NCBI RefSeq assembly: GCF_004010195.1
Contig: NC_057718.1
Span: 60,582,795-60,646,794, forward strand
DNA: 64,000 nucleotides
Source: Chiloscyllium plagiosum
Taxonomy: Eukaryota
Direction: 5' to 3'
Within the stretch, counting starts at the first letter, position 1, and each line of letters begins with the position of its first letter. Shown piece after piece: positions 8,580 through 58,214 of the stretch. Made by a program: the position numbers and the translations under genes. Under the pieces are notes generated by a model. It had not been told where the DNA came from, did not search any database, and saw only the letters and a program-made list of their open reading frames with translations.

Positions 8580-8990
8580 GTCTCATTCCAGAAATAGATA
8601 GTAACCTTGGGGATAAATAGTGAGGAAATGAAGGAAGTTAATATCAATGGAGAAAATGTATTGGAGAAATTTAATTGACTAAAATGCAAGAGATCTATGA
8701 GAGTTGCACCCTGAAATTCTAAAGGAGGTAGTGACATCACACTGACTTTTTTAATTTTCCAAAACTCTACAGGTTCATGTCTATTAGAATGGATGCTGAC
8801 AAATGTTGGGCCATTTAAGAAAGGAGAGAGATTTAAAACAGAGAAGGACAGAGCAATTAACCTAAAATCAATGGTTGGGAAAGTGCTGGAATCCATTATT
8901 AAGGAAATCCTAATGATCATTAGAAACAAGTATCATTAGAATATGTCAACATGTTTCTTTTAATCAAAAACGCATCCTGTTTGACAACAT
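8580..8990 (+). mobile_element. Degenerate CR1 RT-region fragment
   Basis: Decayed match to W..ANV.PLFKKG and VGKVLESIIK motifs; interrupted at ~8990 by a PLE. Confidence 0.65.
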
Positions 8991-8991
8991 T

Positions 8992-9700
8992 TGTGGAGAG
9001 AAGGCAGAGTTTATGTTTTGGGTCCAGTGACTGTTCTACAGAACGGATTGTAACTGGGAAAAGATTGGTATATATATGCTGAAAATGGGGTAGGCGAAGG
9101 GGAAGGAGTAAACAATAAGGGATATGGAGACTAGAGAGAGAGAAAAACAGTTGGTCAGACAAAAGAATTGGTAAAGATCAGCCTCGGAGAATGAGTCGCT
9201 GCCAACAGGTCTTCTAGTAGTTGACAATTGGCTGTTTGTGGTGGCAACCCATATGAGGTCTGGTGTGTGGGGTTTGAAGTAAGGACTTGGGAGAAGGTGC
9301 TCAATATTGAATGCAGATGGCTCAGGATCCCCCATTTGGATGCCAGGCATTATCATCACATTGCTTCTACCTCAAACACCCCATTGTCAGCTACTATTGG
9401 TGCCCATTAGCAGTTATTTCTTGTCCTAAGCTGACTTTTACTCACTCCTTCATTGCTCAACTGTTTTTCTCTTTGTTTGGTCTCCATCTCCATTTATTGT
9501 TTACTCCTCCATCCTCCTTCCATTCAACATCAGCATATATACCAAACTTTTCCCAGCTATAACCAGTTCAAAAGAAGAGTCACTGGACCCAGAATGTTAA
9601 CTTTGATTTCTTTCCACAGATGCTGCCAGACCTGCTGAGTTTTTTTTCCAGCAATTTCTCTTTCTGTTTCAGATTTCCAGTATCTCCACTTCTTTGGGTT
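8992..9700. mobile_element. Old Penelope-like element terminus in inverted (hairpin) arrangement
   Basis: 9000-9250 is a diverged reverse complement of ~9380-9620. The right arm ends in gatgctgccagacctgctgag...ccagca, the same terminus as the family-1 PLEs, with a decayed hammerhead at ~9568-9600. Confidence 0.7.
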
Positions 9701-19239: not shown

Positions 19240-20800
19240 AATGCCTTATGCACAGTTAAAACAATAAATAAATATGCGACTTGATTAGAAACAACAGGGC
19301 AATTAAGAAGGTGAATAGCAGTGATGGGAGTCCAGAAGATGAGTCAGTTCAGATTTGTGGAGATAAACAAATGATAAATAAGGATATTGAGGATAATAAT
19401 TAGCCACCATCTACCAGTAAAAGTGAGATTCCTAATTTAGCCAATGGGAAGGTGTTCAATAAGATAGATCTTTCAAATGCATAATTGCAATGAGAATAAA
19501 CTGACAAGGTCAAGGAATTGCTTGTTATTATTCATACAAACAAATGGTCGTATCAATATGAAATCTGGGTGCCTTCTGTTTGCAGTGGCCTCATGGATCA
19601 GGAGAAAGTGAGGTCTGCAGATGCTGGAGATCAGAGATGGAAATGTGTTGCTGGAAAAGCGCAGCAGGTCAGGCAGCATCTAGGGAACAGGAGAATCGAC
19701 GTTTCGGGCATTAGCCCTTCTTCAGGAATTCCTGGCTAATGCCCGAAACGTCGATTCTCCTGTTCCCTAGATGCTGCCTGACCTGCTGCGCTTTTCCAGC
19801 AACACATTTCCACCTCATGGATCAGGTACTAATTGGAATGAAAAGAGCGTGCTGTTTCAGAGATGACATCCTTATTAGCAGTAAGGTAGAGGAAGGGCAC
19901 ATTGTAAGGTTGGACGACATCTTACATTGACTTCACGAATGTGGCACCAATGAAGAAAAGCACAAGGGTTTCTTAATAGTGTCGGATATAACATAGCTGG
20001 ATCATCTAACAGATGGTGAATGTATCCGCCCAAATGAGGACAAGGTTGAGGAGATTTTGAAAGCTAGCAAACCAGAGAGATCTTTGAAAATTCATTGTGG
20101 TTGTTGTGCATTATTTCAAATTCAACCTCAGTATAGCTAGTAAATCCACTTCACTCTATCGATTGCACAAAGATGGAATAGATTGGGAGTGGTCTGCATT
20201 TGACGCTATTTTGGCTCACAATGAAACCAAGAAAAAAATTGTTTCAGTATGTGATACCTCCCCATAATAGTCAGGGTTGGTGTTAGAAAGGTGGTGTGGA
20301 GAAAATTCTAGTTTTTTTCTTGGTGTGGGTTAACAAAATCAGAATGAAGTCACCCATAAGATGTTAGTGGTCATAAATAATGTTACAAGTTCCTCAGTAT
20401 CTGTGCATGAAGAAGTTCACTTTGTTAACTTACCACCAAGCCCTTATGACCATATTCAGGTCACAGAAAGGTATCAGGATGGCTTCAGAGATGGGCATTA
20501 ATTTTGATGTAATCATTAATTTTGATGCCTCAGCAGTGCAATGGTAAATATTATAAGTAAGCTGATTTTACAAATGCAGAATTTTAAAAAATTTCCTAGG
20601 AAGACTGATTCATTCTTAGCCTTTGACTTACTTGTGAATTACTCTGCATGCCAGAGTCTGCCACAGACATTAGTGAAGAAACTGACATGGTGCTTAGTGA
20701 AGTATTCAATTATATCATGAATGACTGGCCTAAGCAGGTAATGAGGAGAAACTACAGGATTGTTTCACACATAGAAATGAACTGTGTGGTAGATTGGAGC
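19240..20800 (+). mobile_element. Decayed Ty3/Gypsy pol (RT and RNase H)
   Basis: Peptides LANGKVFNKIDLSNA, MDQVLIGMKRACCFRDDILIS (YxDD-like) and LAHNETKKKIVSVCDTSP (RNase H). Confidence 0.8.
19601..19812. mobile_element. Family-1 PLE terminal hairpin insertion
   Basis: Near-perfect inverted arms centred on caggaattcctg; TSD cctcatggatcagg at 19589-19602 and 19813-19826. Confidence 0.9.
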
Positions 20801-22774: not shown

Positions 22775-23450
22775 TAGAAAAAAACCTTATATTTAATATA
22801 ATGCCTTTCATGACCCAAAATGCTTAACAGCCAATGAAGTACTTTTGGAGCATAGTCTCTGTTGTGATATAGGAAACCTGGCAGACAATATGCACACAAC
22901 AGATTCCTGAAGAAGGGCTTATGCCCGAAACGTCGATTCTCCTGTTCCCTGGATGCTGCCTGACCTGCTGCGCTTTTCCAGCAACACATTTTCAGCACAC
23001 AACAGATTAACCAAGCAGAGTGTTAATGACCAGATCATCTGTTTTTGTGATGTTGGTTGAGGGATAATTATTAGATGGGACATCCAGCTAAGGGACAACA
23101 TTTTAGTGCAGAGGGTGGCGTGTGTATGGAATGAATTGCCAGAGAAAGTATGGAGGCTGGTACGATAACAACATTTAAACAGCATCTGGATGTTTACATA
23201 AATAGGAAGGGTTTCGAGGGATATGGGCCAAATGCTGGCAAACGGGAATAGATTAATTTAGGATATCTGGTCAGCATGGACATGTTGGACTGACGATTCT
23301 GTTTCTGTGCTGTACAACTCTATGACTGTGACTCTATGACAACTCCCTCAGTGCTGCATCACAATGTCAGCCTGGACTTTTGTGCTCAAGCCCTATATTG
23401 GAATTTGAACCAGGACCTTGTGACTCAGAGTATTGCTAATGTTCGAGCCA
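22775..23450 (-). mobile_element. Deu-domain SINE (SacSINE1/AmnSINE-like) with a nested PLE piece and a CR1 3' fragment (~23100-23340, +)
   Basis: ctccctcagtgctgc...tgtcagcctgga (Deu domain, reverse complement), tRNA-like head near 23400-23450 and L2-like tail at 22775-22890. Confidence 0.7.
22903..22938 (+). ncRNA. Minimal type-I hammerhead ribozyme motif within an 89-bp PLE insertion (22906-22994)
   Basis: CUGAAGA (22907-22913), one extra A, stem II GGGC-UUAU-GCCC, GAAA, palindromic ACGU then C (GUC site). TSD gcacacaacagatt at 22892-22905 and 22995-23008. Confidence 0.75.
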
Positions 23451-28597: not shown

Positions 28598-29457
28598 AGA
28601 CTAAAATTGGGCCCTTGAAGACAGAAACGGGGAATATATTACGGGGAACAAAGAAATGGCAGAAGAATTAAATTGGTACTTCAGATCTGTGTTCATTGGG
28701 GAAGACACAAGCAATCTCCCTGAGGTAACAGTGGTTGAAGGACCTGAACGGAAGGGAGTTTATATTTGCTAGGAATTGGAGTTGGAGAGACTGTTAGGTC
28801 TGAAGGTTGATAAGTCCTTGAGGCCTGATGGTCTACATCCCAGGTACTGAAGGAGGTGGCTCGAGAAATCGTGGATGCGTTGGTGATTATTTTCCAGAGT
28901 TCGATAGATTCGGGATCAATTCTTGCAGATTGGAGGGTGGTTAATGTTGTACCACTTTTTAAGAAAGGTGGGAGAGAGAAAGCAGGAAATTATACACCAG
29001 TTAGCCTGACCTCAGTGGTGGGAAAAGTGCTGGAGTCTATTATAAAGGCTGAAATTACGACACATCTGGATAGTAGTAACAGGATAGGTCAGAGTCAGCA
29101 TGGATTTATGAAGGGGAACTCATGCTTGACTAATCTTCTGGAATTTTTTGAGGATGTAACTCTGAAGATGGACGAGGGAATTCCAGTAGATGTAGTGTAC
29201 CTGGACTTTCAGAAAGCTTTTGATAAAGTCCCACATCGGAGGTTAGTGAACAAAATTAGGTCGCATGGTACTGGGGGCAAAGTATTAACTTGGATTGAAA
29301 GTTGGTTGGCTGACAGGAAACAAAGAGTAGTGATAAACGGCTCCATTTTGGAATGGCAGGCAGTGACCAGTGGGGTACTGCAGGGATCAGTGCTGGGACC
29401 GCAGCTTTTTACAATATATATTAATGATATAGAAGATGGGATTAGTAATAACATTAG
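28598..29457 (+). mobile_element. Young CR1 RT fragment, cut at its 3' side by a PLE
   Basis: ORF 28856 onward: WRVVNVVPLFKKG, YLDFQKAFDKVPH and QGSVLGPQLFTIYIND; stops just before KFADD. Confidence 0.95.
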
Positions 29458-29458
29458 A

Positions 29459-29780
29459 GGAGAAAGTGAGGACTGCAGATGCTGGAGATCAGAGCTGAAA
29501 ATGTGTTGCTGGAAAAGCACAGCAGGTCAGGCAGCATCCAAGGAACAGGAGAATCGACGTTTCGGGCATAAGCCCTTCTTCAGGAATGAGGAAAGTGTGC
29601 CCAGCAGGCTAAGATAAAAGGTAGGGAGGAGGGACTTGGGGGAGGGGCGTCGGAAATGTGATAGGTGGAAAGAGGTCAAGGTGAGGGTGATAGGTCAGAC
29701 TGGGGTGGGGGCGGAGAGGTCAGGAAGAAGATTGCAGGTTAGGAAGGTGGTGCTGAGTTCGAGGGATTTGTCTCAGTCAA
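29459..29780 (-). mobile_element. Family-1 PLE 3' terminus with hammerhead motif
   Basis: Reverse complement cctgaagaagggcttatgcccgaaacgtcg at ~29555-29585; purine-rich 3' UTR like 50140-50400. Confidence 0.85.
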
Positions 29781-29889
29781 CTCATCGAGCCCTCCACAAT
29801 CACCTGATGAATGAGCATTGCTCCAAAAGCTAGTGTGCTTCCAATTAAACCTGTTGGACTATAACCTGGTGTTGTGTGATTTTTAACTT
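29781..29889 (+). mobile_element. Family-2 PLE terminal arm (partner of 37542-37999)
   Basis: cacctgatgaatgagcattgctccaaaagctagtg...cctgttggactataacctgg, near-identical to 37862-37965. Confidence 0.85.
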
Positions 29890-30299
29890 CCTTAGATTGG
29901 TTTGATTGAAGTCACCAGTCACAATAAACAGGCCTTGGGATATTCCATCTCCAGGGTGTTAATTGTGTAGTACAGAACATCCAGAGCTTCCTCAACCTTT
30001 GCTTGTGGCGGTATGCACACAGCAGTTAGTATAGCAGCAGTAAATTCCCGTGGTAGATAGAAGGTGTGGCATTTGATGGTGAGAAATTCAAGTTTTGGGG
30101 TACAATGGTTGCCCAGGTTTGCAATGTTCATGCACCACAAGCTGTTGATTAAAAAGCAAATTCCTCCACCCTTTGTCTTACCTGAGGAAGCTGTACTGTA
30201 CGGTGCATACAACGGATAGAAAAACCATCAGCCTGAAGTGCTTAATCGGAACAGATGGGTTGAGCCAGGTTTCTGTGAAGCAGAGTGCGCAGCACTCGC
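29890..30299 (-). mobile_element. Rex1/Babar LINE, 5' (endonuclease) half
   Basis: Minus-strand LCFTETWL, GKTKGGGICFLIN, FYLPREF...VCIPPQA and TGDFNQTNLR. Confidence 0.85.
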
Positions 30300-31925
30300 A
30301 GGACAAATATGTTAAACCTAAATAAGGAGACGTATTGGGCATGAAAGCTGAGTTAGCTCAAATGAACTGACATTCTAGGCTAGGGGGCAGATCAATGGGA
30401 ATACAGTGACAGACATACAAAGGGATATTTCAGAATACTCAGAATAAGTATAAAGAAAATTTCTAGAGGGAGGACAGACTTAAAACGTGAAGCTGTTCAC
30501 TTTGTCAGGAAGAATGAGAACGCAGACCAATACTTGAACTGAGTCCAGCTGCAGAATTCTGAGGGTGCAGAGGGATATAGGTGTTCTTGTGCATGAATTA
30601 CAAAACATTACAATATGGAACCAGCACTTAATCAAGAAAGTTAATGAGATGTTATCCTTTATTAGAGGGGAATTGAGCATAAAAATGAGGATGTTATGCT
30701 TCAGCTATGCAGGGCACTGATGAGACCAATTCAGTTTTGGCCTCCCTATTTAATGGAGGATGTAAATATGTTGGTGACAATTTTTAAAATTCATTCATGG
30801 GATGTGGATATTTGTGTTGCTGACTAGGCCAGCATTCATTGTCCAGAGGGCATTTAATAGTCAACCACATTGCTATGGGTCTGGAGTTACATGTGGACCA
30901 TACCAGGTAAGAATGGTTGCTTCCTTCCCAAAAAGATATTAGTAAACCAGATTTTGTTATTCTGACAATCAGCAATAGTTTCATAGTCATCGCTAGACTC
31001 ATAATTCCAGGTTTTTATTGAATTCAAATTCCACTATTTGCCATGGGAGGATTTGAACCTGTGACTCCAGAGTATTACCTGGGTCTCTGAATGAAAACTT
31101 TAGCAATAATACAATTAGATCATCAGCATAGGATTCCTGAAAGCCTTTTGAAGATAGTTTGGACAAGCTAGGCTTATTTCCACCTGAGTTTAAAGGATTG
31201 TGATTGACTTGATTGAAGTTATAAGATCCTAAATGGTCATGACAATGTGGATAGGGAGAGGAGATTTCCTCTATGGGTCAATCCAGAACTAGGGGACACC
31301 GCTTAAAATGTCATTCTTTCAGGACAGAAATAAGAGGATTTTTTTTTGTCACTGAGAGGATTGTGCAACCTGGGAATCTCTGTTACAGATGGTGGTGGAG
31401 ACAGTCTCACTGAATATTTTAAAGACAGAGCTGGATGGATTCTTGTTAGGTGGGGGAAATCAAAGAATATGTGGATAGATGCTAATGTTGAATTCAAAAG
31501 CACAAACAGATGTTTGTGGTACGGTGGCTCAGTGGTTAGGACTGCTGCCTCACAGTCCAGGATCCTGGGTTTGATTCCATCCTCAGGCAACTATGTGGAG
31601 TTTGCACATTCTCCCTGTGTCTGTGTGGGTTTCCTCCTGGTGCCCTGGCTTCCTCTTACAGTCCAAAGATGCGCAGGTTAGGTGAATTGGCCATGCTAAA
31701 TTGCCCACAGTGTTCAGGGATGTGTAGGCTTGGTGCATTAGTTAGGGGGAATGAGTCATGTTGGGATACCCTTTGAGTGTTGGTGTAGACTTGTTCGGTC
31801 AAATGGCCTGTTTTCACACTGTAGGGATTTTATGATACGATCTGCCATGATGTTATTGAATGACAGAGCAGGTTTGAGGGGCTGTATGGTCTACTTTTGC
31901 TCCTATGTTATATGTTCATACCAGT
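30300..31925 (+). mobile_element. Old CR1 (post-EN to 3' end) with nested SINEs at 30785-31125 (-) and 31515-31835 (+, HE1-like)
   Basis: LNLNKGD...MKAELAQMN, CR1 RT C-terminal remnants and tail tcctatgttatatgttc; SINE heads are recognisable. Confidence 0.7.
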
Positions 31926-33877
31926 ATGAATAATTACAAATGCACAGGCTTTCATAAAGAACAGTATTGTATGGAACAATGTAAGCCATCCAGGGTAAAT
32001 TACAAATATCAATCTTTTTTACTTCAAAAGCATGGTAAACTTAACGAGAAACTAATCCAGAAGCCTGCTGGGATTGCAGCACATAGGAAGTATTGATGAT
32101 TGTTGAGAGGTAGTGGAGCAAGCCATAAAAGCATAATCTAGAAAATTGCACATGAACAAAAAAATACTTCAGGCCAATTATAATTATTCAAATCTACAGG
32201 TGATAACTCTAATGTATTCATTCAGTTCTCAAGCAATCTGTAGTCAAGGTACTTTACATTCAGGTTAGCCATAAATTTGTGCCATGCATCAAAAACACAG
32301 CTCACAATAACTGCTCATTCAGATTGTCCCTTTTTCAGAAAATTCCTGATAGCAGAAAGCACCAAGTTTAAACTGGCAATGGAGCACAGTGAAAAAAACT
32401 ATGCCATAGAAGTTATAACAGATGCTACAGAGTAAGAATGCATACATGATGTTGGCATTCAATGTTTGAGGACACTGGATGCAAAGGTGTGATGCTTGAA
32501 TTAATAGGGGGCTGGCTCCTACACTGGCATAAGTGCTGATGCATAACAACAAGTATTTTGCTCTCAAATCACTACCAGTACTTTTCCATCCAGAGCCTCC
32601 ATGAAACTGATGAGAGAAGACACAATCTATGTTACTGAGACCGGGACTTGCTACTCTGGCACACAGGAAGGATTATCCAAGATTGTAACATGTCAAGGTA
32701 AGAGCTCTCAAGAAGACAGCTGCTCTCATTAGAACATCACTCATAAATAAAACACGAGAAAGATTATTTGCACTAGTGGAAAGAGCAAAAAGGGAAAACA
32801 CAGCTGCATATCACATTAAATACCTTCAATGCTGTTGAAATGGAAATGCAGCATACTTCCTTTGACTTTCAGGAATTGCTTTCTTTCAACATTTCTGTTA
32901 TCCATACAGAGGTCAGAAGTAACGATTCTTTAAATGGAAGGGAAGATAAAATCATTTAAACTTTTACTCCAGACACATTAAGAGAAAATCTTGAAAAAAT
33001 GACCAAAGGAGTTTAGACAATATCATGGTAACATGTTACAAATATCATTGAGGACAGGTTTCACCATGGGAGTTTCTGTACTTTAACCCTGCATTATCAT
33101 GCAAGATAGCTGCAACATGGAGGAGTTCAACATCTCCAATTCATATCACTAAAAATCCAATGAGAATGACATATTAACCTCTTAGTTCAGGATTCTTTTT
33201 GACTATCATTATCAAAAGACAGGTCCCATAACTGAAAATAGAACATACTGTAGGGTCCTTTCATTGCAGTTCATACTTGACTTTCTCTGATCTCAGTTTT
33301 TCAGCAAAATCCTGCTTCATCTTCGTTTCTTCCTTGCTCATGTCTTCCTCTGCTCCCAGCCCACTCTCTTTCTCTTTCTGTTCCCAAGCCACTTCATTTA
33401 TCTACTGTTGGATTTCCTTTCCTTCCTGCATCACTCCCTCTGGTGTTTGTCTTCCCAATTTTCCATCCATGCAGCCTAAGTGGCTTTAGCCTTGGGAGGG
33501 AGCTGAGATTTGGATAGAAACCAAACAGTGAAAACATAAGAACATCACTGATGAGGAATGGCAAGTTCATAATCATTATTAACTTAAAAATGAGATAGTT
33601 CTATCGAACAGACACAGTGGCATTGGTAAACTGAGCACAATTATGATATGGTAATAAGAGCAACAGTTCAAATACTATGTTGATATTTCACCAATATTAC
33701 ACAAGATGGATAAATACTTTTGGCACATAGTAGCCTATTGCAGGATTTTAATCAAATGTGCAAAACAAAACAAGGTGTCATTGCAAAAGTAAGAAATTGC
33801 AAAGGGAAAACAGAAGTTGAAGGTAAAATGCCAAATTGAAGGAAGAAAATGTGTTCTTTTCTCTGTTACCTTTTATT

Positions 33878-34153
33878 CAATAGACAATAGGTGCAGGAGT
33901 AGGCCATTCAGCCCTTCGAGCCTGCGCCGCCATTCAATATAATCATGGCTGATCATTCCTAATCAGTATCCTGTTCCTGCCTTATCTCCATAACCCTTGA
34001 TTCCACTATCTTTGAGAGCTCTATCCAACTCCATCTTAAATGCATCCAGAGAGTGGGCCTCCACTGCCCTCTGGGACAGAGCATTCCACACAGCCACCAC
34101 TCTCTGGGTGAAGAAGTTTCTCCTGAGCTCTGTCCTAAATGGTCTACCCCTGA
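33878..34153 (-). mobile_element. Young 5'-truncated CR1 3' end
   Basis: IRGRPFRTELRRNFFTQRVVAVWNAL...; tail (caataga)n. Confidence 0.9.
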
Positions 34154-36399
34154 TCATTTTTGAGAAGAGTTATTTTTCTTCTATTCCTTTTTAAATGTAT
34201 TTCTTACTTTTGACAATATAATTTCATGTACTAAAAGAACACTGGTAGATTACCTTTTTTTGCTTTATTACACATCTTGGCCCATTTTGGTGAGCAGTTT
34301 TTCAGATGTTATCTGTACGTTCTTAAAGATCTTCTTCCTTGTATTTTAATTCATGAGTCCAGTTCATCAACCACTTATCCCACCTTTCTACCAGTCAAGG
34401 TGGCAATGAATGAAGCCATGACCATCTTCATATATGTTGCCTCCATATCCTGTGGTTCTTCTGAATGAAGCAGAATTCATCAGGAATATGTTGGTGTTCG
34501 TCAGCTTTGCTATTCTATGGATGAGGAGGAACTAACATAATCAAAGTGGTTAACAATGTTGGGCCTGAAGTCTTTGGGTTTCCTGTCTCATCTTCAATCA
34601 TTCATACATATAGCATTAATATAAAGCTTACTGAGGCAGTGTCAGGGCTTTTTAAAATAAATCAAGAACATTTCAGGTCAAATTCGTTTTGGTGCCCCTA
34701 GGTTGCAAGATGTTGACTCTCAAAACTGGGTCTTATTCAGTCAATTTTACATTCATAAAATAGTACACCAGGTACAATTCCTATCACCAAGTGTCACTTT
34801 GGTGTCTGATTCATTGCTAGAACTTGAATGTGCATTTTCCCATTTTAATGCAAATCATGTTTTTCTTTCTGTTTTACCAAAATGGATTCCATAAGTCAGG
34901 GAGCAAAATTGTATTCATGTTTATTTTCCGATCAATTGCTAATTTTTGTTTTGTCAATTTTCTTTTTTCTGGACCCTCCTCCTGAAAGAACAGATCTGTT
35001 GTTATGATACAGGTCTGGAATAAACAAGAGCACTCAAACTGGCAGTCCAAACGGCAATCTGTCTTACATAAGCCTCAAAGGGAGTCAACTGGTTACTTGA
35101 ACATAAAGAGTTCATGGCTGAATTGGATTCTGAGTCACCTGATATCCTTTCTGGCAGGGAGTCACTGAATGGGAAAAACGAAGAAGAACTCAGACTCAAC
35201 ACCACTTCATATTGATACCAGCTGAGTGTCAAGGTGAATCCTACACTCAACAAATAACATAAATCTATGTAGGTCACTGCAAACCAAGTTGTGCCTTCAC
35301 TATAAAAGAGAACATTTAGCAGTTTCTGACATTTAACAAGTTGGGATTACTTTACTTTCTAATCTACATATTAGCCAGGACAATGTAACTGTCCCATGAA
35401 TTTATTTCTATCCACATTTGCAGAGGAATATGAATTGTACATGGTCTATGACTTCCCTGCTAAAAGTAATCTTGACTAATCTATTTACTTGATTGTATTT
35501 TCTTATGTAGGAATAGATATTCAATTTATATTTTCCAATCAATCTGGCTTTCCATTTTAGATAGTGCATGGCATAAGAAAATTTGAAAAGTAGGCCAATC
35601 ATGAATAAAAAGAGACACTAAATATAACATTAAGTTAAAAAATAAAGCTCAGCTCCAAAAGGGATCAGTAAACCTGAGGATTAGAAGCAAAGGATGACCA
35701 AAAGATTGATAACAAAATTGAAAAATGCAATGAGTAAACTATTGTTATGATCCATCGTTTGACTGCAACAGGCTTTTTAAAACAAACTTGATTGCCAATT
35801 CACTGAGTGTTTAGCTGAGTAAGTACAGTGCCTGTAAAAGACACACATAGACATGTTTTCTTGTATTCTTTTCAAAAAGTGAACAATATTTATTATACTT
35901 AGCACTCAAAGATTCACACGCACAAGCACACACATTTAGGATGGATGGAGACAGAAAGTGGAAGAGCCCAGTCAATAACAATTTTTCTCTGTGACTTAAA
36001 TTTATTCTCAAATTTGGACCTGGAGAAAACAAAGGTCCCTAAAACACAAAAGATGGTAATTTGATTCATCATACCATCATCCTACACAAATTGATTAGTT
36101 ACCCAAACATGGTCATGCTAAATTGATTCTGGGTCTGTTGTTTAAATTGAAAAGTTTAAACAAACTTTATCACTGTACTTAAGTATATACGATTAAAAGA
36201 AATCAAATCTTCAAATAAATGTCATTACATTATGGCAGTAGAGTTCCCTTCTCAACAGGATCTATTATCCATGGGCATCTGCTGGCTTAGTCTACACCCA
36301 GCTGAATGCTGAGGTGCTGTCTGGGTGTTTTGTGAATGGGTCAAGGAGATGGACTTTTCACATTCCTTTAAGATGATTGTCCATGATCATTTTTTTCCA

Positions 36400-37540
36400 G
36401 GCACAGGAATGTAAGAGCGGGGAGAAGCCATTTGATCCTTCAAACCTGCACCATCATTCAGTAAGATCATTGCTGATCTATCTCTGGTGTTAACCCTGTC
36501 TGGCCATCATAGCACCTATCAAAAATCTATTAAACACAGCTTTGAGTAAATTTAATAATCAGCTTCCACTGATTTCTGGAGAGGAGAATTCCACATACTA
36601 ATGATTCCAGGGAAAAAAATTGAAAAAGTGATCTCTTACTCTAAAATTGCGTCTTCTAGAATATTGTAACTTCTGAAACTTATTCTAAAACATCTCTCAT
36701 TCATGACACCCTCATAACCGGAAACATCAACCTAGTATCTACCTGTTAAGTCCCCTTATTAATTTATTTGTTTCAATAAGATCATCTCCCATTTAACTAA
36801 ACTCAGATACGTAGAGGCCGAACCTATTTAACATTTCTCCATAAGTCTCTCATTCTTGGAATAAATCAAGTGAAAATCCTCTGAAGAGCTCTGAATTCAA
36901 TTATATCCTTTTCTAAATGGGACATCAAAACTGTACATTGTATTCCACATGTGATGACACCAAGATCTTGTACATCTGCAATACAATTTTCATTATATAT
37001 TCATTTCCCTTCTAATAAATGCCAAGTTTTAATTTGCCTTCTGAATTATTTGCTGTGCCTATATACTAACATTCTATGATTCATGTTCTAGAAAACTCAG
37101 ATTCCTTACACCATAGAAGTTTGCAATTATTCTCTAAGTCAATGATATCCTTGTACTGTTTATCTATTCTCTCTGCTAAAGTCAACAAGTTCACATTTTT
37201 CTACATTATATTACATTTGCCAAAGCTTTGCCCACTCACTTACCCTTTCTGTGTTCCTTTGTACACACTTCACTACCCCTTGACAACATACTTTCCTATC
37301 TATCTTGCTGTCATTTCAAGCTTACAGATTTAGCTGCCATACATTTGGTCCTTTGTCTAAGTTATTGATCCAGATTGCAAATGATTTACCTATCGGAACT
37401 GACCCTTGCAGCTGTGCTCCAGTTACAACTTCCCAACCAAAAAAGACTCATTTTTCTACACTTTCTGCTTCCTGTTAACTGGCCAATACCTTACTGAAAT
37501 ATTTTATGTATTGTTAATATATTATTCTCCAACTCATGTA
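36400..37540 (-). mobile_element. Old CR1 (RT to 3' end), truncated at the inversion breakpoint
   Basis: Decayed CR1 3' UTR at 36400-36660 and RT-region reverse complement ending ...ctccaactcatgtag. Confidence 0.65.
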
Positions 37541-37541
37541 G

Positions 37542-37999
37542 AACTCTGAGCTCAAAAACTGCATGAATTTATGTAAAACTCTGTTATCTCACTTTTTAGA
37601 TTAGAATCAATCTAAACATCAGGTCATAGGCAGAGAACACAGGGTGCTAACACCTTCAACATATTGTCTAGCTAACACCATTGTTAACAGCTAACCCGAG
37701 AATGCAACTTGAAAAAAAAGGGTTTTGTGATTTACACATGAAAGAAGTGAAACTATCACTGTATTCTAACAGATGAAAGGCTTAACAGACAATCAATTTT
37801 TCAATGTATAATTTCAGTTACATCACACTGTAAATTTTTGCTATAAATTCTGTGTTACGACCGAGCCCTCCACGATCACCTGATGAAGGAGCGTCGCTCC
37901 AAAGGCTAGTGTGCTTCCAATTAAACCTGTTGGACTATAACCTGGTGTTGTGTGATTTTTAACTTTGTACACCCCAGTCCAACACCGGTATCTCCAAAT
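37542..37999 (+). mobile_element. Family-2 PLE 3' terminus with hammerhead-like motif
   Basis: cacctgatgaaggagcgtcgctccaaaggctagtg at ~37877-37911 (GAAA core mutated); ends ccccagtccaacaccggtatctccaaat. Confidence 0.85.
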
Positions 38000-40136
38000 C
38001 AATCTAAGGAAGGTGTTGCCCAAGTAATACCAGAATATTACCTGCCCCACCAGGGGCCCGAACTTTTTAGACCACTGCTACACCACTGTGAAAGATGCTG
38101 TGTTTCTTCTCCTGGCTTACAGGCAAAAACTCAAGCAGGAGACCCCCTCGCAGATCCAGATCCAATGCTGGTCAGAGGATGCAGAGAATCAACTCCTGTA
38201 CTGTCTAGAATCAGCTGATTGGACCATGTTCAAACATTCCGCATGTACGTTGGACGAGTATGCCATCACCATCACAGACTTTATCAGCAAGTGTGTGGAG
38301 GACTGCATACCGAGGAAGTCAATCCGGGTGTTCCCCAACAGGAAACCCTGGATGAATCAGGACATACAGAACCTGCTAAAAACCAGGCATGAGATCTTCA
38401 GATCTGGAGACCCAATCAAATGTAAGGAATCCAAGTATGACCTTCACAGAGCCATTAAGACAGCCAAGGGTCAATACTGATCCAAACTGGAGACCCAGAC
38501 AGACACCCAGTGATTATGGCAAGGACTGAATGACATCGCAGGTTCTAAAAAGAGCCAGTACATGATAGCAGACGATGACACATCCCGCCAGATCATCTCA
38601 ACGTCTTCTATATTCGTTTTGAGCAGAATTTCGGCAGAGAGGTAACACATATTCCATCAAGTCCTGACAAACTATTCCAACAGTCACTGTATAAGTTTTC
38701 CCTTGTGTAAATCCAAGGAAAACTATGGGACCAGACAGAGTACCAGTTCATTTACTCAGGGCATGCGCAGATCAACTGGCAGAGGTCTTCTCGGGCATCT
38801 TCACCCTCTCCCTGCAGCCGGCTAATATCCCTGCCTGTTTCAAGAGGGTCAACATCATCCCTGTGCTTAAGAAGGCTCATGCAGCATGTCTCAATGATTA
38901 CCACTCAATGGCCCTAACTTTGGTGATCATGAAGTGCTTTGAAAGGCTGGTCATGGCATTAATCAACTCCAGCCTCCCCACTACTCTTGACCCACTCAAA
39001 TATGCCTTTCAAACCAACATGTCAAATGACATACCACTTGCCCTTCACTCCTCCCTAGAACATTTCGGTACCAAGAACAGCTACATAGGAATCCTACTCA
39101 TTGACTACAGTTCAATCTTCAAAACTATTATCCCCTCGAGACATAATCTTGGACTAAGCCCCACTCTCTGCAACTAGATCCTCAGTTTCCTGACCCACAA
39201 GCCACAATCAATGAAGATTGGGGACAATATTTCATTGTCACTAACACTCAACACTGGAGCCCCCCATGGGTGTGTATTCAGTCTCTACAGTACTCACTGT
39301 ATACCCATGGCAGCATCATCAAATACCAGACTAATGCCATTTACAAGTTCGCTGATAACACCACCATAGTCAGTTGACTCTCAGATGGCAATAAAACTAC
39401 AGACGAGAGGTGGAAGACCTGGAAAAGTAGTGCACTGAGAACAACCTAGCTCTCAATGCTGGCAAAACCAAGGAACTCATTATTGACTTTCGGTGGGATG
39501 TTACTCATGCCCCCCTACACATTAACAGCACAGAAGTGGAACGAATGGAGAGTGCCAAGCTCCTGGGAGTGGTCATCCACAACAAGCTTTCTTGGACTCT
39601 TCATGTGGACACACTGGTTACAAAGGCCCAACAACGTCTCTTCTTCCTCAGGTGAATACCTTTGCCAAATTTTATAGGTGTGCCATCGAGGGCATTCTGT
39701 CTGGATGTATCACTACCAGGTATCGCAACTGTACCATTAAAATCATTGTGGAGAGTGGTGAACTCAGCTGAGACAATCATAAAGGCGAACTTTTCATCTA
39801 TAGAATCCGTTTACCAGGCCTGCTGTCAAGGAAAGGCTGCCAGCATTCTGAAAGATCCATCCCACCCTGGCAATGTTTTCCACAACCTCTACCATCAGGG
39901 AGAAGGTACAAAAGCCTGAACACATGCACCAACCAGTTTTGAAACAGTTTCTACCTTACTGTTGTTAGAATACTGAATGAACTCACAAATTCTTAACATT
40001 TGCCTGTACCTGTGTTTTTGGTTTTGCCGCTGTTTACCTATTACTGACTTATCTCTGTGATCTGCTTGTATTGCTCGCAAGACAAACCTTCTCACTGTGC
40101 CTTGGTACATGTGATAATAAATTCAATTCAATTCAA
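38000..40136 (+). mobile_element. Rex1/Babar LINE, 3' half (EN end, RT, tail), frameshifted
   Basis: NLRKVLPK..ITCPTRG, FPNRKPWMN, ACADQLAEVF, MKCFERLV, GAPHGCVFS and KFADNTT; tail (attca)n at 40121-40136. Confidence 0.9.
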
Positions 40137-40720
40137 TTGTCCTAAACACCTCATTTCCTTTTCAAACTGGATGTTAAATTCATTTATATCATGGTTACTA
40201 CTGCTTAACATACCTTAATTCTGAGGTCATTAAGTAAATTCTGTCCCATTACATGCCTCGTCTAATTAGACTGCTCTGTCGTCAGTTCCAGAGCTTACTG
40301 CTCCAAGAAACTCTCTCAAATGTATTTTATGAACTCCCCATGCATGCTACTGCAGCCAATCTAATTTTTCAAGTTTCTATTTAGATTAAAGCCACCTGTG
40401 ATTATTGCTATCTCTTTATCACAAGCAGCCAATATTTCTTCTCATGTACTTTGTCACACAAAATGTGGATCATTCCCACAAACAACCTCTTTCTCTGTCC
40501 CTCACCTTCACCCAACCCTATTCCTCATCTTGACCTCCTGAATCAAGATCACCTCTAACTACTGCACAAATGCCATCCTTACTTAATAGTTCAGCCCTCC
40601 ACTTTTACCAACCTTATTATTTTTCTTAACTGTCATGTACCCCATATTATTCAGGATACATTCCCATCATAATGTAGCTATGACTCTGTAATGGTTCTGA
40701 AAATATACGTATTTTCTTCA
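40137..40720 (-). mobile_element. Old CR1 endonuclease region (5' partner of 30300-31925)
   Basis: Reverse complement resembles the EN sequence at 300-1050; its minus-strand frame ...IQFEKE... continues into 30300 onward. Confidence 0.65.
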
Positions 40721-40736: not shown

Positions 40737-41525
40737 TGTGATGAAAGGTGTTTGATTTATATATATAAATAATCAACAACAGTTTTTGAATAAGATTTTA
40801 AGCTACTGACATATGAATTTAGTTTATTTGTGCAAAAGGATTTAATAAGTTACTCAGGATTAATATATTTTAGAACCATAATTTTAAACTAGCTTGTGCT
40901 CAAGTTCAGATGACTGAAGGCCTCTTGGAGTGTTGATGGAAGTTTGCGTATAATATGGTGTTTCCAGCAAGACACAAAGAAATATTAAGCCATGAGCTTA
41001 GCAGAAGCTAGAACAAGTCCTTTTGCCAAAAGTTAGTTAAAAGCCTTTGAATTTATATCAAAAGAGACCTGACTGAAGTTAGTTGTAAGAATAGTTTCTC
41101 TTCAAAAAAAATAGCTTGCTTGAATTGTTAAAGAATTAGGTTACCTTTGTGTAAGGATTCAGTTTGTGAAAACTGGGCATATTTGTTTAGAAATCTGTGT
41201 GTTAATCAAAACTGAAAAAGTCTAAGATCTCAGTTGTGAGAGTCAAAGAAAACACTTCAAAGTTCAGAGAATCAAAATTGAAAATAAACAGTTATGTCAA
41301 GCTACAGTTCTATTTGGGAAGGAAAGTTTCACTGGATTTTAATTCACTGTAAGACAATTGTGCTTGGGAATAGTTAAGAGTTTGTTTTTTTGTCTGTTTT
41401 AAGTCTTTCAACTGTGTTATCTGTAGATAGTTTGGCTTGTTTCATTTTAGTAGTGTAATAAACTTTTGTTTTATTGTCAAAACCAAATCAGCACAGATTT
41501 TCATATTTTTACAGTGTTGATCCCA
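40737..41525 (+). mobile_element. Probable old solo LTR
   Basis: Starts tgtgatg, AT-rich body, aataaacttttgttttattg near 41457 as in the LTR at 14642; right end and TSD not resolved. Confidence 0.35.
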
Positions 41526-43381
41526 AATATACAAACTTGAAGAATTAAATTCTGAATGTTACTGTGCTACTTGTTGCTGACCTTCTTGTTGCTGCCTCGA
41601 GAATATTAGTTTTCAATTTTTATAATAGGGTAGCATTGGAAAATAGTATAAAAAGTACTACCCACTTGTCCCTGCCTCTTTGCAAGATCATGAGTAAATG
41701 TGTTTGTTTCATAGTGCTGTCACTCTACATCATCCAGAAATTGAATAACAGGTGGATGCTTTGGGTCAGAATGTAGTTTTTAAGTGAGTATAATGATATT
41801 TGACCAGCACTGTTTCAAACCAGCCACATCCCCACAATAGTCTCTGCAATATGGAATTGTATAAGCTTCTATCTTGCCTTCTTTCAGTTTTTGAATGTGT
41901 CATTTAAACAAAAATAAGTACCACAGCTTTATGCTTTAAGCAAGATAATGTTTCAGTGAAAAAGTACCATGTTAAATTAATCAAAAACAAAACAATGATT
42001 TATCATTTCAGAGTTCTTCTGGAATCTGAATTGTCCAGTGCTAATATCAAATGGAATCAGAACAGCTGAAATTAGATATCTTTTGCTTATAATTTTCCAT
42101 TCCTCCCAAGTATGTGAATCATTATTCACCTCTCATGCTTTAGTTTTCAATTCTAGAATTGTACGCCGGTTATTAGTATGCACCATAGATTGGTCATAAG
42201 TTCTTAAATTTCCTTACTGCTGATGGTGTCACAGAGGACATATTTGGTGTTATGAACTGCCCCTCTTCTGGGCAGCAATGATGACTGTGGAAAGTAGATT
42301 ACACAATTATGACACTGCAGAGGAACATCTCTCGACACTGGAACAATTCAGTCAAACAGCACAGAATGTGCAGTGAGCTGTAAGTACCTTAACTTTAGAA
42401 AATGCATGAAGCACCACGTTTGAGTGGACCCTGGATGTTTGTGTGCCAGCTCAATGCAGCTGCAGGCCTGAAAGTACAATTTGGTCATTTGTACAGGAAA
42501 ATCTGGGAGGCCATGTTGTGGAGCCAGAACTGTGAGTGGTGGCATCAGACTTCATTATGTTGTTACTGTAGTCTGTTGTAGTGGTTCATTATCCACGACT
42601 GCAACTCTGTTGCATAGACAACCAGCAATTAGACCAAAAAGGGACATTGGGAGAGAGATTTTTGATTGAGTGTGTGTGTGGGAGAAGAGCTGGGAGAAAG
42701 AGATGGTGAATGAGTGTATCAGAAGAGGAAGGGTGTTGGGAAGATCGGTACCTGTGTGCAGATATGTGAAAGTAAGTGTAAGTAGGGTGAGAGGGGCTGA
42801 CTGCAAAGGTTCCATGAGGAGGGGAGAGAGCTTTCACGAAGTCTTCTGTCACCAGGCAATTTGGTGACCTTGGCTGAGATCTAATTGATTTCAGGAAATT
42901 ATAACATTTTGCAAAGTATCTTAAAGCACTGATTTCCATTTTTTAAAATGGTATCGATTTGTAATATGCAAACTTTTAAGAATTAAATTCTGAATGTTAT
43001 CAACTACTTTTTGCTGACCTTTTTGTTGGTGCCTCAAGAATGTTGGTTTTCAATTTTTAAAAGAAGGTGATATTGGAAAATAGCACAGAAAGCACAGCCC
43101 ACTTGTCCCTGCTGCTATTGCAAGATCATGAGTAACTGTGTTTGCTTCACAGCACTATCACTCTACTTCACACAGAAATTGAATAGCAGGCAGATGAGCT
43201 GGGTCAGAATGTACTTTTATGTGGGTTTAATGATATTTGACCAGCACTGCGTCACAGCAGTTACATCCCCACAATAGTCTCTGCATTATGAAATTGTATA
43301 AGCTCATCTCTTGGCTTCTTTCAGTTTTTGAATGTGTCAATTTAAAATCTAAACATGACAGCTTTATGCTTTATCAAGACA
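41526..43381 (+). repeat. ~420-bp diverged direct duplication (41526-41946 and 42963-43381)
   Basis: Both copies run aagaattaaattctgaatgtta...cccacttgtccctgc...cccacaatagtctctgc...acagctttatgcttta with scattered substitutions. Confidence 0.85.
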
Positions 43382-43741
43382 GAAGTTTTGTTTATTACTT
43401 GACTATTGTTACAATTATTTAAGTACAATATGATAAAAATAATCATTAAAGTGCGGTGATTAAGAATTCAAATAAGATCAAAAGTCATGCATGAAGATTG
43501 AAATGAGATCAGTCTCTGGTGTCATTGCACGTCTGCCTTGCTTAAAGGTTACTTTTGAAGTGAAACTAGTGAGAGGTTGAAGTCAGATTCAGTAGTTGTG
43601 ATGTCTTCAGTGGCTAAATAGTTGCTCCCCCACAGGTATATTGAGCAGAACAGGTTCAGGAAACAAGTGAAGACTCCTCTGTTTTTCTCTTATAGGTTGT
43701 GGCTCTTGTTTAACAGGGAAGTCCTGAACACTCGTGTGCCC

Positions 43742-44518
43742 ATTGTTGTGGTTCTGTTCGCCGAGCTGGGAATTTGTGTTGCAGACGTTTCGTCCCCTGT
43801 CTAGGTGACATCCTTAGTGTTTGGGAGCCTCCTGCGAAGCACTTCTGTGATGTTTCCTCTGGCATTTATAGTGGTTTGTCTCTGCCGCTTCCAGTTGTCA
43901 GTTCCAGCTGTCCGTTGCAGTGGTCGGTATATTGGGTCCAGGTCAATGTACTTATTGGTTGAATCTGTGGATGAGTGCCATGCCTCTAGGAATTCCCTGG
44001 CTGTTCTCTGTTTGGCTTGTCCTATAATAGTAATGTTGTCCCAGTCGAACTCATGTTGCTTGTCATATGCGTGTGTGGCTACTAAGGATAGCTGGTCGTG
44101 TCATTTCGTGGCTAGTTGGTGTTCATGGATAAGGATCGTTAGCTGTCTTCCTGTTTGTTCTATGTAGTGTTTTGTGCAGTCCTTGCATGGGATTTTGTAC
44201 ACTACGTTGGTTTTGCTCATGCTGGGTATCGGGTCCTTCGTTCTGGTGAGTTGTTGTCTGAGAGTGGCTGTTGGTTTGTGTGCTGTTATGAGTCCTAGTG
44301 GTCGCAGTAGTCTGGCTGTCAGTTCCGAACTGACAACCGGAGGCGGCAGAGACAAACCACTACAAATGCCGGAGGAAACATCACAGAAGCACTTCACAGG
44401 AGGCTCCCAAGCACTGAGGATGTCACCTAGACAGGGGACGAAACATCTGCAACACAAATTCCCAGCTCGGCGAACAGAACCACAACAACGAGCACCCAAG
44501 CTACAAATCTTCTCACAA
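43742..44518 (-). mobile_element. Family-3 PLE (Poseidon-like GIY-YIG endonuclease 3' end) with inverted terminal repeat
   Basis: Minus-strand TNVVYKIPCKDCTKHYIEQTGRQL...HEH. 44328-44488 is the reverse complement of 43744-43902. TSD actc(g/t)tgtgccc at 43730-43741 and 44519-44530. Confidence 0.9.
44411..44450 (+). ncRNA. Minimal hammerhead motif, family 3 (second copy on minus strand at ~43781-43820)
   Basis: gca-CUGAGGA-U-guc...gac-GAAA-caUC-ugc; stem I gca/ugc. Confidence 0.6.
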
Positions 44519-44659
44519 ACTCTTGTGCCCTTCTAGAGGAACAGGGACTGCTTCAATTTGTTTCGCTCGAGATCTCCACCAACATGATTGCTTGCAGCCA
44601 GATTTATATACAGATCAAGACTTAAAATTACTGCTCTCGCAAAACTGTTGAATTATGGG

Positions 44660-57500: not shown

Positions 57501-57612
57501 TTCAGTGAGTTATTCTCATGGATTTTGAATCTCCTCCTTCCCAACTTATCAGCCCTGCCCCACATAAACTTAATTAATTCATTGGCTTTGAAATTTACCA
57601 TGTGCAGTATTA

Positions 57613-57838
57613 GAGCTGAAAAATGTTGCGCTGGAAAAGCGCAGCAGGTCAGGCAGCATCCAAGGAGCAGGAGAATCGACGTTTCGGGCATAAGCTCTTC
57701 TTCCTGAAGGATTCCTGAAGAAGGGCTTATGCCCGAAATGTCGATTCTCCTGCTCCTTGGATGCTGCCTGACCTGCTGCGCTTTTCCAGCACCACATTTT
57801 TCAGCTCTGATCTCCAGCATCTGCAGTCCTCACTTTCT
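57613..57838. mobile_element. Family-1 PLE terminal hairpin insertion with an intact + strand hammerhead core
   Basis: Inverted arms around cctgaaggattcctg; TSD ccatgtgcagtatta at 57598-57612 and 57839-57853. Confidence 0.9.
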
Positions 57839-58214
57839 CCATGTGCAGTATTATTCAATTAATACAGGCAGCTTCTCTCGCTGCTTAAATAACATGAGAA
57901 GGTTTAACACACTTGTATGTAAAGCATTTGTGCACAAACATGACATTGCACAATTACACACAATGTAATGCCAAAGCCAGTGTTCACTGCTATTCCCATT
58001 GCAGTCACTGTTCACAAATTGACAGCAAATAGTGTCATTGTTCTAGCTGCACAGTAAGCGTGGTAGGTGTGGATGTAGCAAGTGATTTGGACTGGCAGTG
58101 TGGAGTGAATGACTTAATATTTTACACTTTTTTCCTTACTGATTTTTTGATCCAGGTTAAAAGAAACAATCAACTGCAGTCTTTGTAGAAGGAAAAACAC
58201 CCAACAGGGACTTA

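Follow-up and report, generated by a model that had tools for sequence, protein, structure and literature searches.

Organization of the locus

The locus is built of transposable elements nested in one another. A Rex1-type LINE, itself lying in an older CR1, is present as two halves on opposite strands, and each half adjoins one arm of a Penelope-like element (PLE) of the family that we call family 2, together with one copy of a 13-bp target-site duplication (TSD). An arm of a second PLE, of family 1, lies further to the left (Table 1). The LINE names Rex1 and CR1 were assigned from motifs and are provisional; a Pfam search gave no relevant match to back them. The window, meaning the whole stretch of 64,000 bp that was analysed, comes from Chiloscyllium plagiosum (GCF_004010195.1, NC_057718.1:60,582,795-60,646,794), and its coordinates are used throughout. 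The source assembly comprises 3.56 Gb in 101,977 contigs; the window has no N, its closest gaps being one that stops immediately ahead of position 1 and one that opens at 131,323. Wider samples consisted of 664 kb for searches of words and TSDs and 1,264,000 contiguous bases (24,735 N) for PLE ends. Words from the block between the family-2 arms are found in public runs with the same species label at a share of 0.62-0.90 (8 rows, 2 studies), which proves that the block sequence exists and nothing more, and in runs of two relatives at 0.24-0.36.

Table 1. Features at the split family-2 insertion, in window coordinates.
Feature	Position	Strand	Basis or remark
Young CR1-type LINE fragment (RT region), 3' remainder missing	28599..29457	+	90.5% to intact neighbour copy; name assigned from motifs
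Family-1 PLE arm with tail, without partner arm or second TSD	29458..29770	-	
13-bp family-1 sequence in opposite orientation (hairpin-tip remnant or templated piece)	29768..29780	+	
8-bp copy of the other breakpoint (37530-37537)	29778..29785	+	Word search
Inverted block	29784..37537	.	7,754 bp including short arm; 7,651 bp without it
Family-2 PLE short arm, tailless; left end of inverted block	29784..29889	+	End mapping
PLE target-site duplication, inverted copy	29887..29899	-	
Rex1-type LINE, 5' (endonuclease) part	29900..30299	-	Alignment to relatives; name assigned from motifs
LINE 7-bp TSD, inverted copy	30300..30306	-	
Old host CR1, downstream half	30300..30760	+	Register in relatives
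Old CR1 fragment cut at right breakpoint	36400..37537	-	
Family-2 PLE long arm with tail, 466 bp	37534..37999	+	End mapping
PLE target-site duplication, upright copy	38000..38012	+	
Rex1-type LINE, 3' part	38013..40136	+	Alignment to relatives
LINE 7-bp TSD, upright copy	40137..40143	+	
Old host CR1, upstream half	40137..40470	-	Register in relatives

As assembled, the block is inverted relative to the right flank, because the 13-bp PLE word, the reading frame of the LINE, the LINE's own TSD and the host CR1 all continue in inverted order. The first-pass annotation had placed the 13-bp TSD on opposite strands, and each copy is indeed the only one on its strand, at 38000 (plus) and 29887 (minus), both in the window and in 664 kb. 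The minus half of the LINE reads ...GDFNQTNLRK and the plus half goes on as NLRKVLPK; among 19 relatives fetched, 6 are without the 5' half, and in all 13 that span both halves the overlap is exactly the 13-bp word, which bears out the earlier reading of one LINE split into a minus and then a plus half. Halves from different subfamilies or divergence classes had been named as what would speak against that reading, and the two prove alike in their divergence from the per-column majority of the relatives: 32/354 (9.0%) for the 5' half, 128/1467 (8.7%) for the 3' half. The 3' part also has an internal deletion of about 48 bp compared with its relatives, in window positions 38000-38500.

The LINE's 7-bp TSD was likewise found inverted, as annotated. 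This word alone is common in the window (12 forward and 4 reverse copies) and is informative because it is found at both LINE ends. The proposed division of the host CR1 into a plus part from 30300 and a minus part from 40137 agrees with its register, since the former follows the latter with an offset of at most 4 bp in six of nine relatives and at most 9 bp in eight of nine, though five of the nine alignment scores are not above the shuffled maxima. Eight of the 15 listed open reading frames of the inverted block were run against Pfam with no match, and no affected gene was seen.

Two Penelope-like families and their usual layout

PLE insertions are described as having an inverted pLTR, an optional tail of 30-40 bp on one arm, and a TSD (PMC3846280, PMC8557442; available portions). 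A longer family-1 copy matches GIY-YIG (PF01541) above the Pfam cutoff (E 2.8e-5). Family-2 pieces have no Pfam match; the C-terminal part of family 2 matches family 1 (34% over 58 aa, E 6e-8), and its N-terminal piece gave no useful match. An RT-like frame with YIDDIF occurs in a long family-2 locus, with no match in Pfam or PDB, and family 2 ends in a tail of about 34 nt. A pattern for a hammerhead core-like motif hits the short arm and the family-1 arm and is absent from the long arm; an Rfam search for hammerheads in window positions 19000-59000 found none. Judged by sequence, families 1 and 2 qualify as EN+ Penelope-like elements both by GIY-YIG and by inverted arms, tail and TSD. The tailed and tailless arms, the 13-bp TSD and the GIY-YIG family are as in the canonical EN+ insertion, and the putative hammerhead-like core motif may be so too, as far as it is described in the accessible text of PMC3846280, PMC8557442 and PMC11167929. 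Unlike that insertion, the arms at this locus are 7.65 kb apart in the same orientation (both plus), with one TSD copy inverted.

Three PLE families account for the 183 3' ends found in the 1,264,000 contiguous bases, where 42 pairs of a tailed and a tailless arm stand head to head with matching flanks of 8-18 bp (one tandem cluster is counted three times); over the 1.24 Mb of called bases this amounts to some 34 young two-arm pairs per Mb. Half of the young tailed family-1 arms (18/36) have a hairpin partner. Intact two-arm insertions in the window were used as controls (among 19600-19816, 43736-44520, 57609-57840 and 22903-22996), in a set that also includes one lone tailless arm that has a direct TSD. 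A case of one PLE nested in the junction of another occurs some 86 kb to the left of the window start (-86256 to -83583), where a long two-arm insertion of family 2 has a family-1 hairpin at its tailless end and TSD. At L205:1359-2770, tailless and tailed family-2 arms stand tail to tail, separated by about 33 bp, and another arm follows. The window also contains an old degenerate palindrome at 8966-9644, its arms about 69% identical, which probably derives from a PLE hairpin by decay, and a direct 450-bp duplication at 41490-41938 and 42925-43373 (82% identity).

One insertion with its arms apart

When 1,356 same-family pairs of tailed and tailless ends lying 3-200 kb apart were compared for matching flanks, the arm pair 29784/37534 was the only one that matched, with a score of 15 against 9 for the next best pair. 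The two arms have one derived site in common and differ at 6 of 106 sites, in which they resemble intact family-2 pairs, and they share an identical run of 61 bp. Measured from the tail end, the 5' end of the short arm is at 140 nt, which places it at the upper limit of a cluster of 5' ends (120-145 nt) that holds 21 of 39 family-2 arms. The comparison supports the view that a single family-2 insertion gave rise to both arms, one tailed and one tailless as is normal, and that the block between them is inverted. The mapped arms also agree with the first-pass annotation, in which each TSD copy bears a family-2 3' arm whose 5' end is joined to distant DNA.

The common route to inversions bounded by transposable elements is ectopic recombination (PMC2603318, in the portion available), which here would have taken place between separate family-2 copies in opposite orientation; related retroelement copies bound the block here too. 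That route requires a pair of inverted copies, and its products should include two TSD pairs with exchanged members as well as a reverse-oriented arm at the right junction. The locus has one TSD pair, both arms on the plus strand and two non-homologous 5' junctions, an anatomy that contradicts recombination of this kind, and we think it can scarcely be right.

The two junctions

As assembled, the DNA to the left of the block was not originally adjacent to the block's far end; this flank stops in the family-1 arm, which lies inside the young CR1. An intact neighbour copy of that CR1 extends 903 bp past the point where the match of 28599-29457 stops. The remainder of the young CR1, the family-1 partner arm and its TSD were not found in 664 kb, and one exact genome-wide pattern for the same missing pieces returned no match, in a search where a single substitution would hide one. 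If the young CR1 had a complete 3' end, the event would be unbalanced, an inversion together with a deletion of at least about 0.9 kb on the left. The inverted block first placed at about 29781-37541 is real, with its limits corrected to 29784-37537, whereas the expectation that re-inverting it would restore a contiguous locus is not supported: the locus does not look like a clean two-break swap, because the left break lacks DNA and coincides with the end of a second PLE.

Nothing of the family-1 second arm survives at the left junction beyond 3 bp. The reversed piece at 29768-29780 forms a 7-nt loop plus these 3 bp, and one other family-1 copy (L052) begins its second arm with the same piece. 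The junction 17-mer there is unique in the genome, the ordinary form having 2,206 copies, and no exact hairpin with such a tip was found elsewhere. A recurrent 7-bp micro-inversion was considered as the origin of the reversed piece and rejected, with 0 continuing copies against the 2,206 ordinary ones. The left break lies at the cut end of the family-1 PLE rather than at an arbitrary site, and from these 13 bases the spot looks like that element's hairpin tip.

The 8-bp copy of the other breakpoint has 3 bp in common with the left piece and 2 bp with the right arm, which leaves 3 of its 8 bases unshared; the 8-mer has 35 copies in 664 kb (2.7e-5 per position). At the right junction the block's far end consists of an old CR1 interrupted in mid-element, which overlaps the long arm by about 5 bp, and no upstream part of this CR1 ending at the matching point was found in 84 kb. 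Neither junction retains any piece of the opposite arm. Since the left filler copies 8 bp of the other breakpoint as well as a reversed family-1 piece, it would appear that all ends belong to a single repair event.

The copied filler argues, too, against misassembly. Unique segments might be misjoined through family-2 repeats in an assembly of so many contigs, where N gaps often lie beside PLE arms, where these arms share their 61-bp identical run, and where PLE inverted structures are of a kind that troubles assemblers (PMC8557442, available part). The window is without N, however, and a single flip cannot yield the observed order because the arms are direct repeats, so that two errors and a loss of sequence would be required. 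Moreover, both arm 5' junctions join unique to repeat sequence, and one copies 8 bp of the other. On this anatomy we consider an artefact very improbable.

Seen another way, the left junction repeats the customary two-arm arrangement, tailed against tailless and head to head, except that its tailed arm is of family 1 and its tailless arm of family 2; the ages of the two are indistinguishable. Simultaneous family-1 and family-2 insertions about 9 kb apart that swapped their cDNA ends could produce this, as proposed for synchronous L1 events (10.1101/2024.08.27.596794, in the part available). Such an exchange should have left a fourth arm and a family-1 TSD, neither of which was found in 664 kb or with the exact genome pattern, and it requires that two germline insertions, each a rare event, coincided in time at neighbouring sites; it strikes us as distinctly improbable.

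Origin of the inversion

Drawing on this one locus in one assembly, we consider it probable that the block was flipped during the family-2 insertion, its new cDNA ends being joined not to each other but to another break, one that lay where an older family-1 PLE ends. On this view, cuts made by the PLE protein in the two strands, 13 bp from one another, would each have supplied a 3' end that the protein extended. Resection or breakage would then have moved the left end to a point at least about 9 kb distant, probably the family-1 hairpin tip; from one end of the block so released, this tip end would have copied several bases before it was joined to the short cDNA at the block's other end. The block's far end would have joined the long cDNA via the microhomology of about 5 bp, and the DNA between tip and block would have been lost. 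Two cDNA-bearing ends, which would exist at each insertion and normally be joined head to head, are plausible because an anole PLE protein, once purified, was shown to cut both strands and to extend them, starting at two sites that define the tail (PMC11167929, accessible text), and this lends biochemical backing to the earlier suggestion of two cDNAs primed at the two target ends. A far break at the hairpin tip would be explained by the folding of inverted repeats in resected single-stranded DNA (PMC10164571, accessible text).

The timing is put at insertion because the short arm keeps its native start, which looks like an untrimmed cDNA end, and because neither side keeps sequence of the opposite arm. 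That the insertion itself caused the inversion, as first proposed, is the best reading, favoured by the native start and the copied filler; to the original proposal must be added a probable deletion and a far break that does not look arbitrary. Age does not order the events. Distance from the majority is 5/312 for the family-1 arm and 14/564 for the family-2 arms (Fisher p=0.47), and family 1 is nominally the younger, whereas inversion at insertion needs it to be older or equal in age. Intact family-2 pairs are not homogenised, so that dating by homogenisation of the arms cannot separate early from late splitting.

A nominally younger family 1 would fit a later event, in which both PLE hairpins had been completed and both palindromes then broke at their centres and were cross-joined, losing one arm and flank. 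Both breakpoints are indeed PLE arm 5' ends, a random break would fall within 5 bp of a hairpin tip with p ~4e-4 (25 tips assumed, 664 kb), and inverted repeats are known fragile sites (PMC10164571, PMC2603318; available sections). However, arms of 106 and 466 bp give a loop of about 360 bp, and a cut in it should leave long-arm sequence on the short-arm side, where none is present; the short arm instead ends at the native start cluster. Two independent breaks would be needed besides. We regard later breakage as unlikely, and prefer inversion at the time of insertion.

Search for further cases

Split insertions of this type are rare. Set against 42 head-to-head pairs in 1.26 Mb, no other split pair was found (0/42, upper 95% bound 8%). 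Ten orphan family-2 arms, drawn from about 16 candidates, were traced to +/-10 kb with none split (0/10), one of them having 6.7 kb of N; a flank-collinearity test of 12 young orphans was informative for two, both collinear. Young family-2 arms without partner or TSD are common (L004, L011, L014, L127, L131, L133, L140, L143, L145, L147). L133 was taken up as a second split case and turned out instead to be a CR1 with a small deletion at the target site, which suggests that insertion-linked deletions may be frequent.

Relation to known rearrangements

The nearest counterparts are local inversions made by L1 (10.1101/2024.12.14.628481, as described in the part available to us). These share with the PLE locus an inversion of kilobase scale abutting the insertion, one TSD-like end on the other strand, and a deletion between the block and the far breakpoint; one L1 case has the insert within the inverted block. 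The L1 route involves resection and self-annealing of the break end. The features by which such events are recognized recur here: TSD copies on opposite strands at the ends of the inversion, a deletion (its size a lower bound), and microhomology or templated sequence at the junctions. Unlike L1, the PLE locus has cDNA on each end, a far break at the end of another element, and an age sufficient for 2-4% divergence. The L1 cases are somatic or from cell lines, with parental DNA known.

L1 twin-priming and synchronous insertions (10.1101/2024.08.27.596794, same proviso) offer a second likeness, in that two cDNA ends engage distant breaks, forming two bridges with the DNA between lost. Those events span megabases, unlike this one, and twin priming leaves one poly(A) end and one internal piece, whereas both arms here are the element's 3' region. 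For PLEs themselves, Penelope is found at inversion breakpoints in dysgenic crosses of Drosophila virilis too (PMC3681739), where, in the text available, the link is cytological, the insertions were already in the parents, and no split insertion is described at sequence level. The accessible parts of PMC12910113 and PMC9977147 describe no PLE insertion-mediated inversion, and our literature search, which covered openly available main texts, found none at the level of sequence. The outcome, already known for L1, would thus have a sequence-level PLE counterpart that appears to be new.

The locus may also bear on how the inverted second arm of PLEs arises. PMC3846280 favours self-priming, and PMC11167929 reports that both strands are cut and extended, with later steps left unvalidated (both in their available portions). 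If the split arose at insertion, arms that end on different DNA favour two separate cDNAs. A tentative reading, which we advance as possible at most, is that the locus is a frozen intermediate, showing the second arm of PLEs to be a cDNA primed on its own, its end left free, and not a snap-back product, and that germline inversions and deletions of this sort recur, with older hairpins fixing the position of the far break. If the insertion did cause the inversion, insertion-caused inversions would extend from L1 in tumours and cell lines to PLEs in the germ line. At about 34 young two-arm pairs per Mb, even a low rate might give many events genome-wide, and on the tentative reading PLE insertion would, in PLE-rich vertebrate genomes, be a recurrent source of local inversions and deletions.
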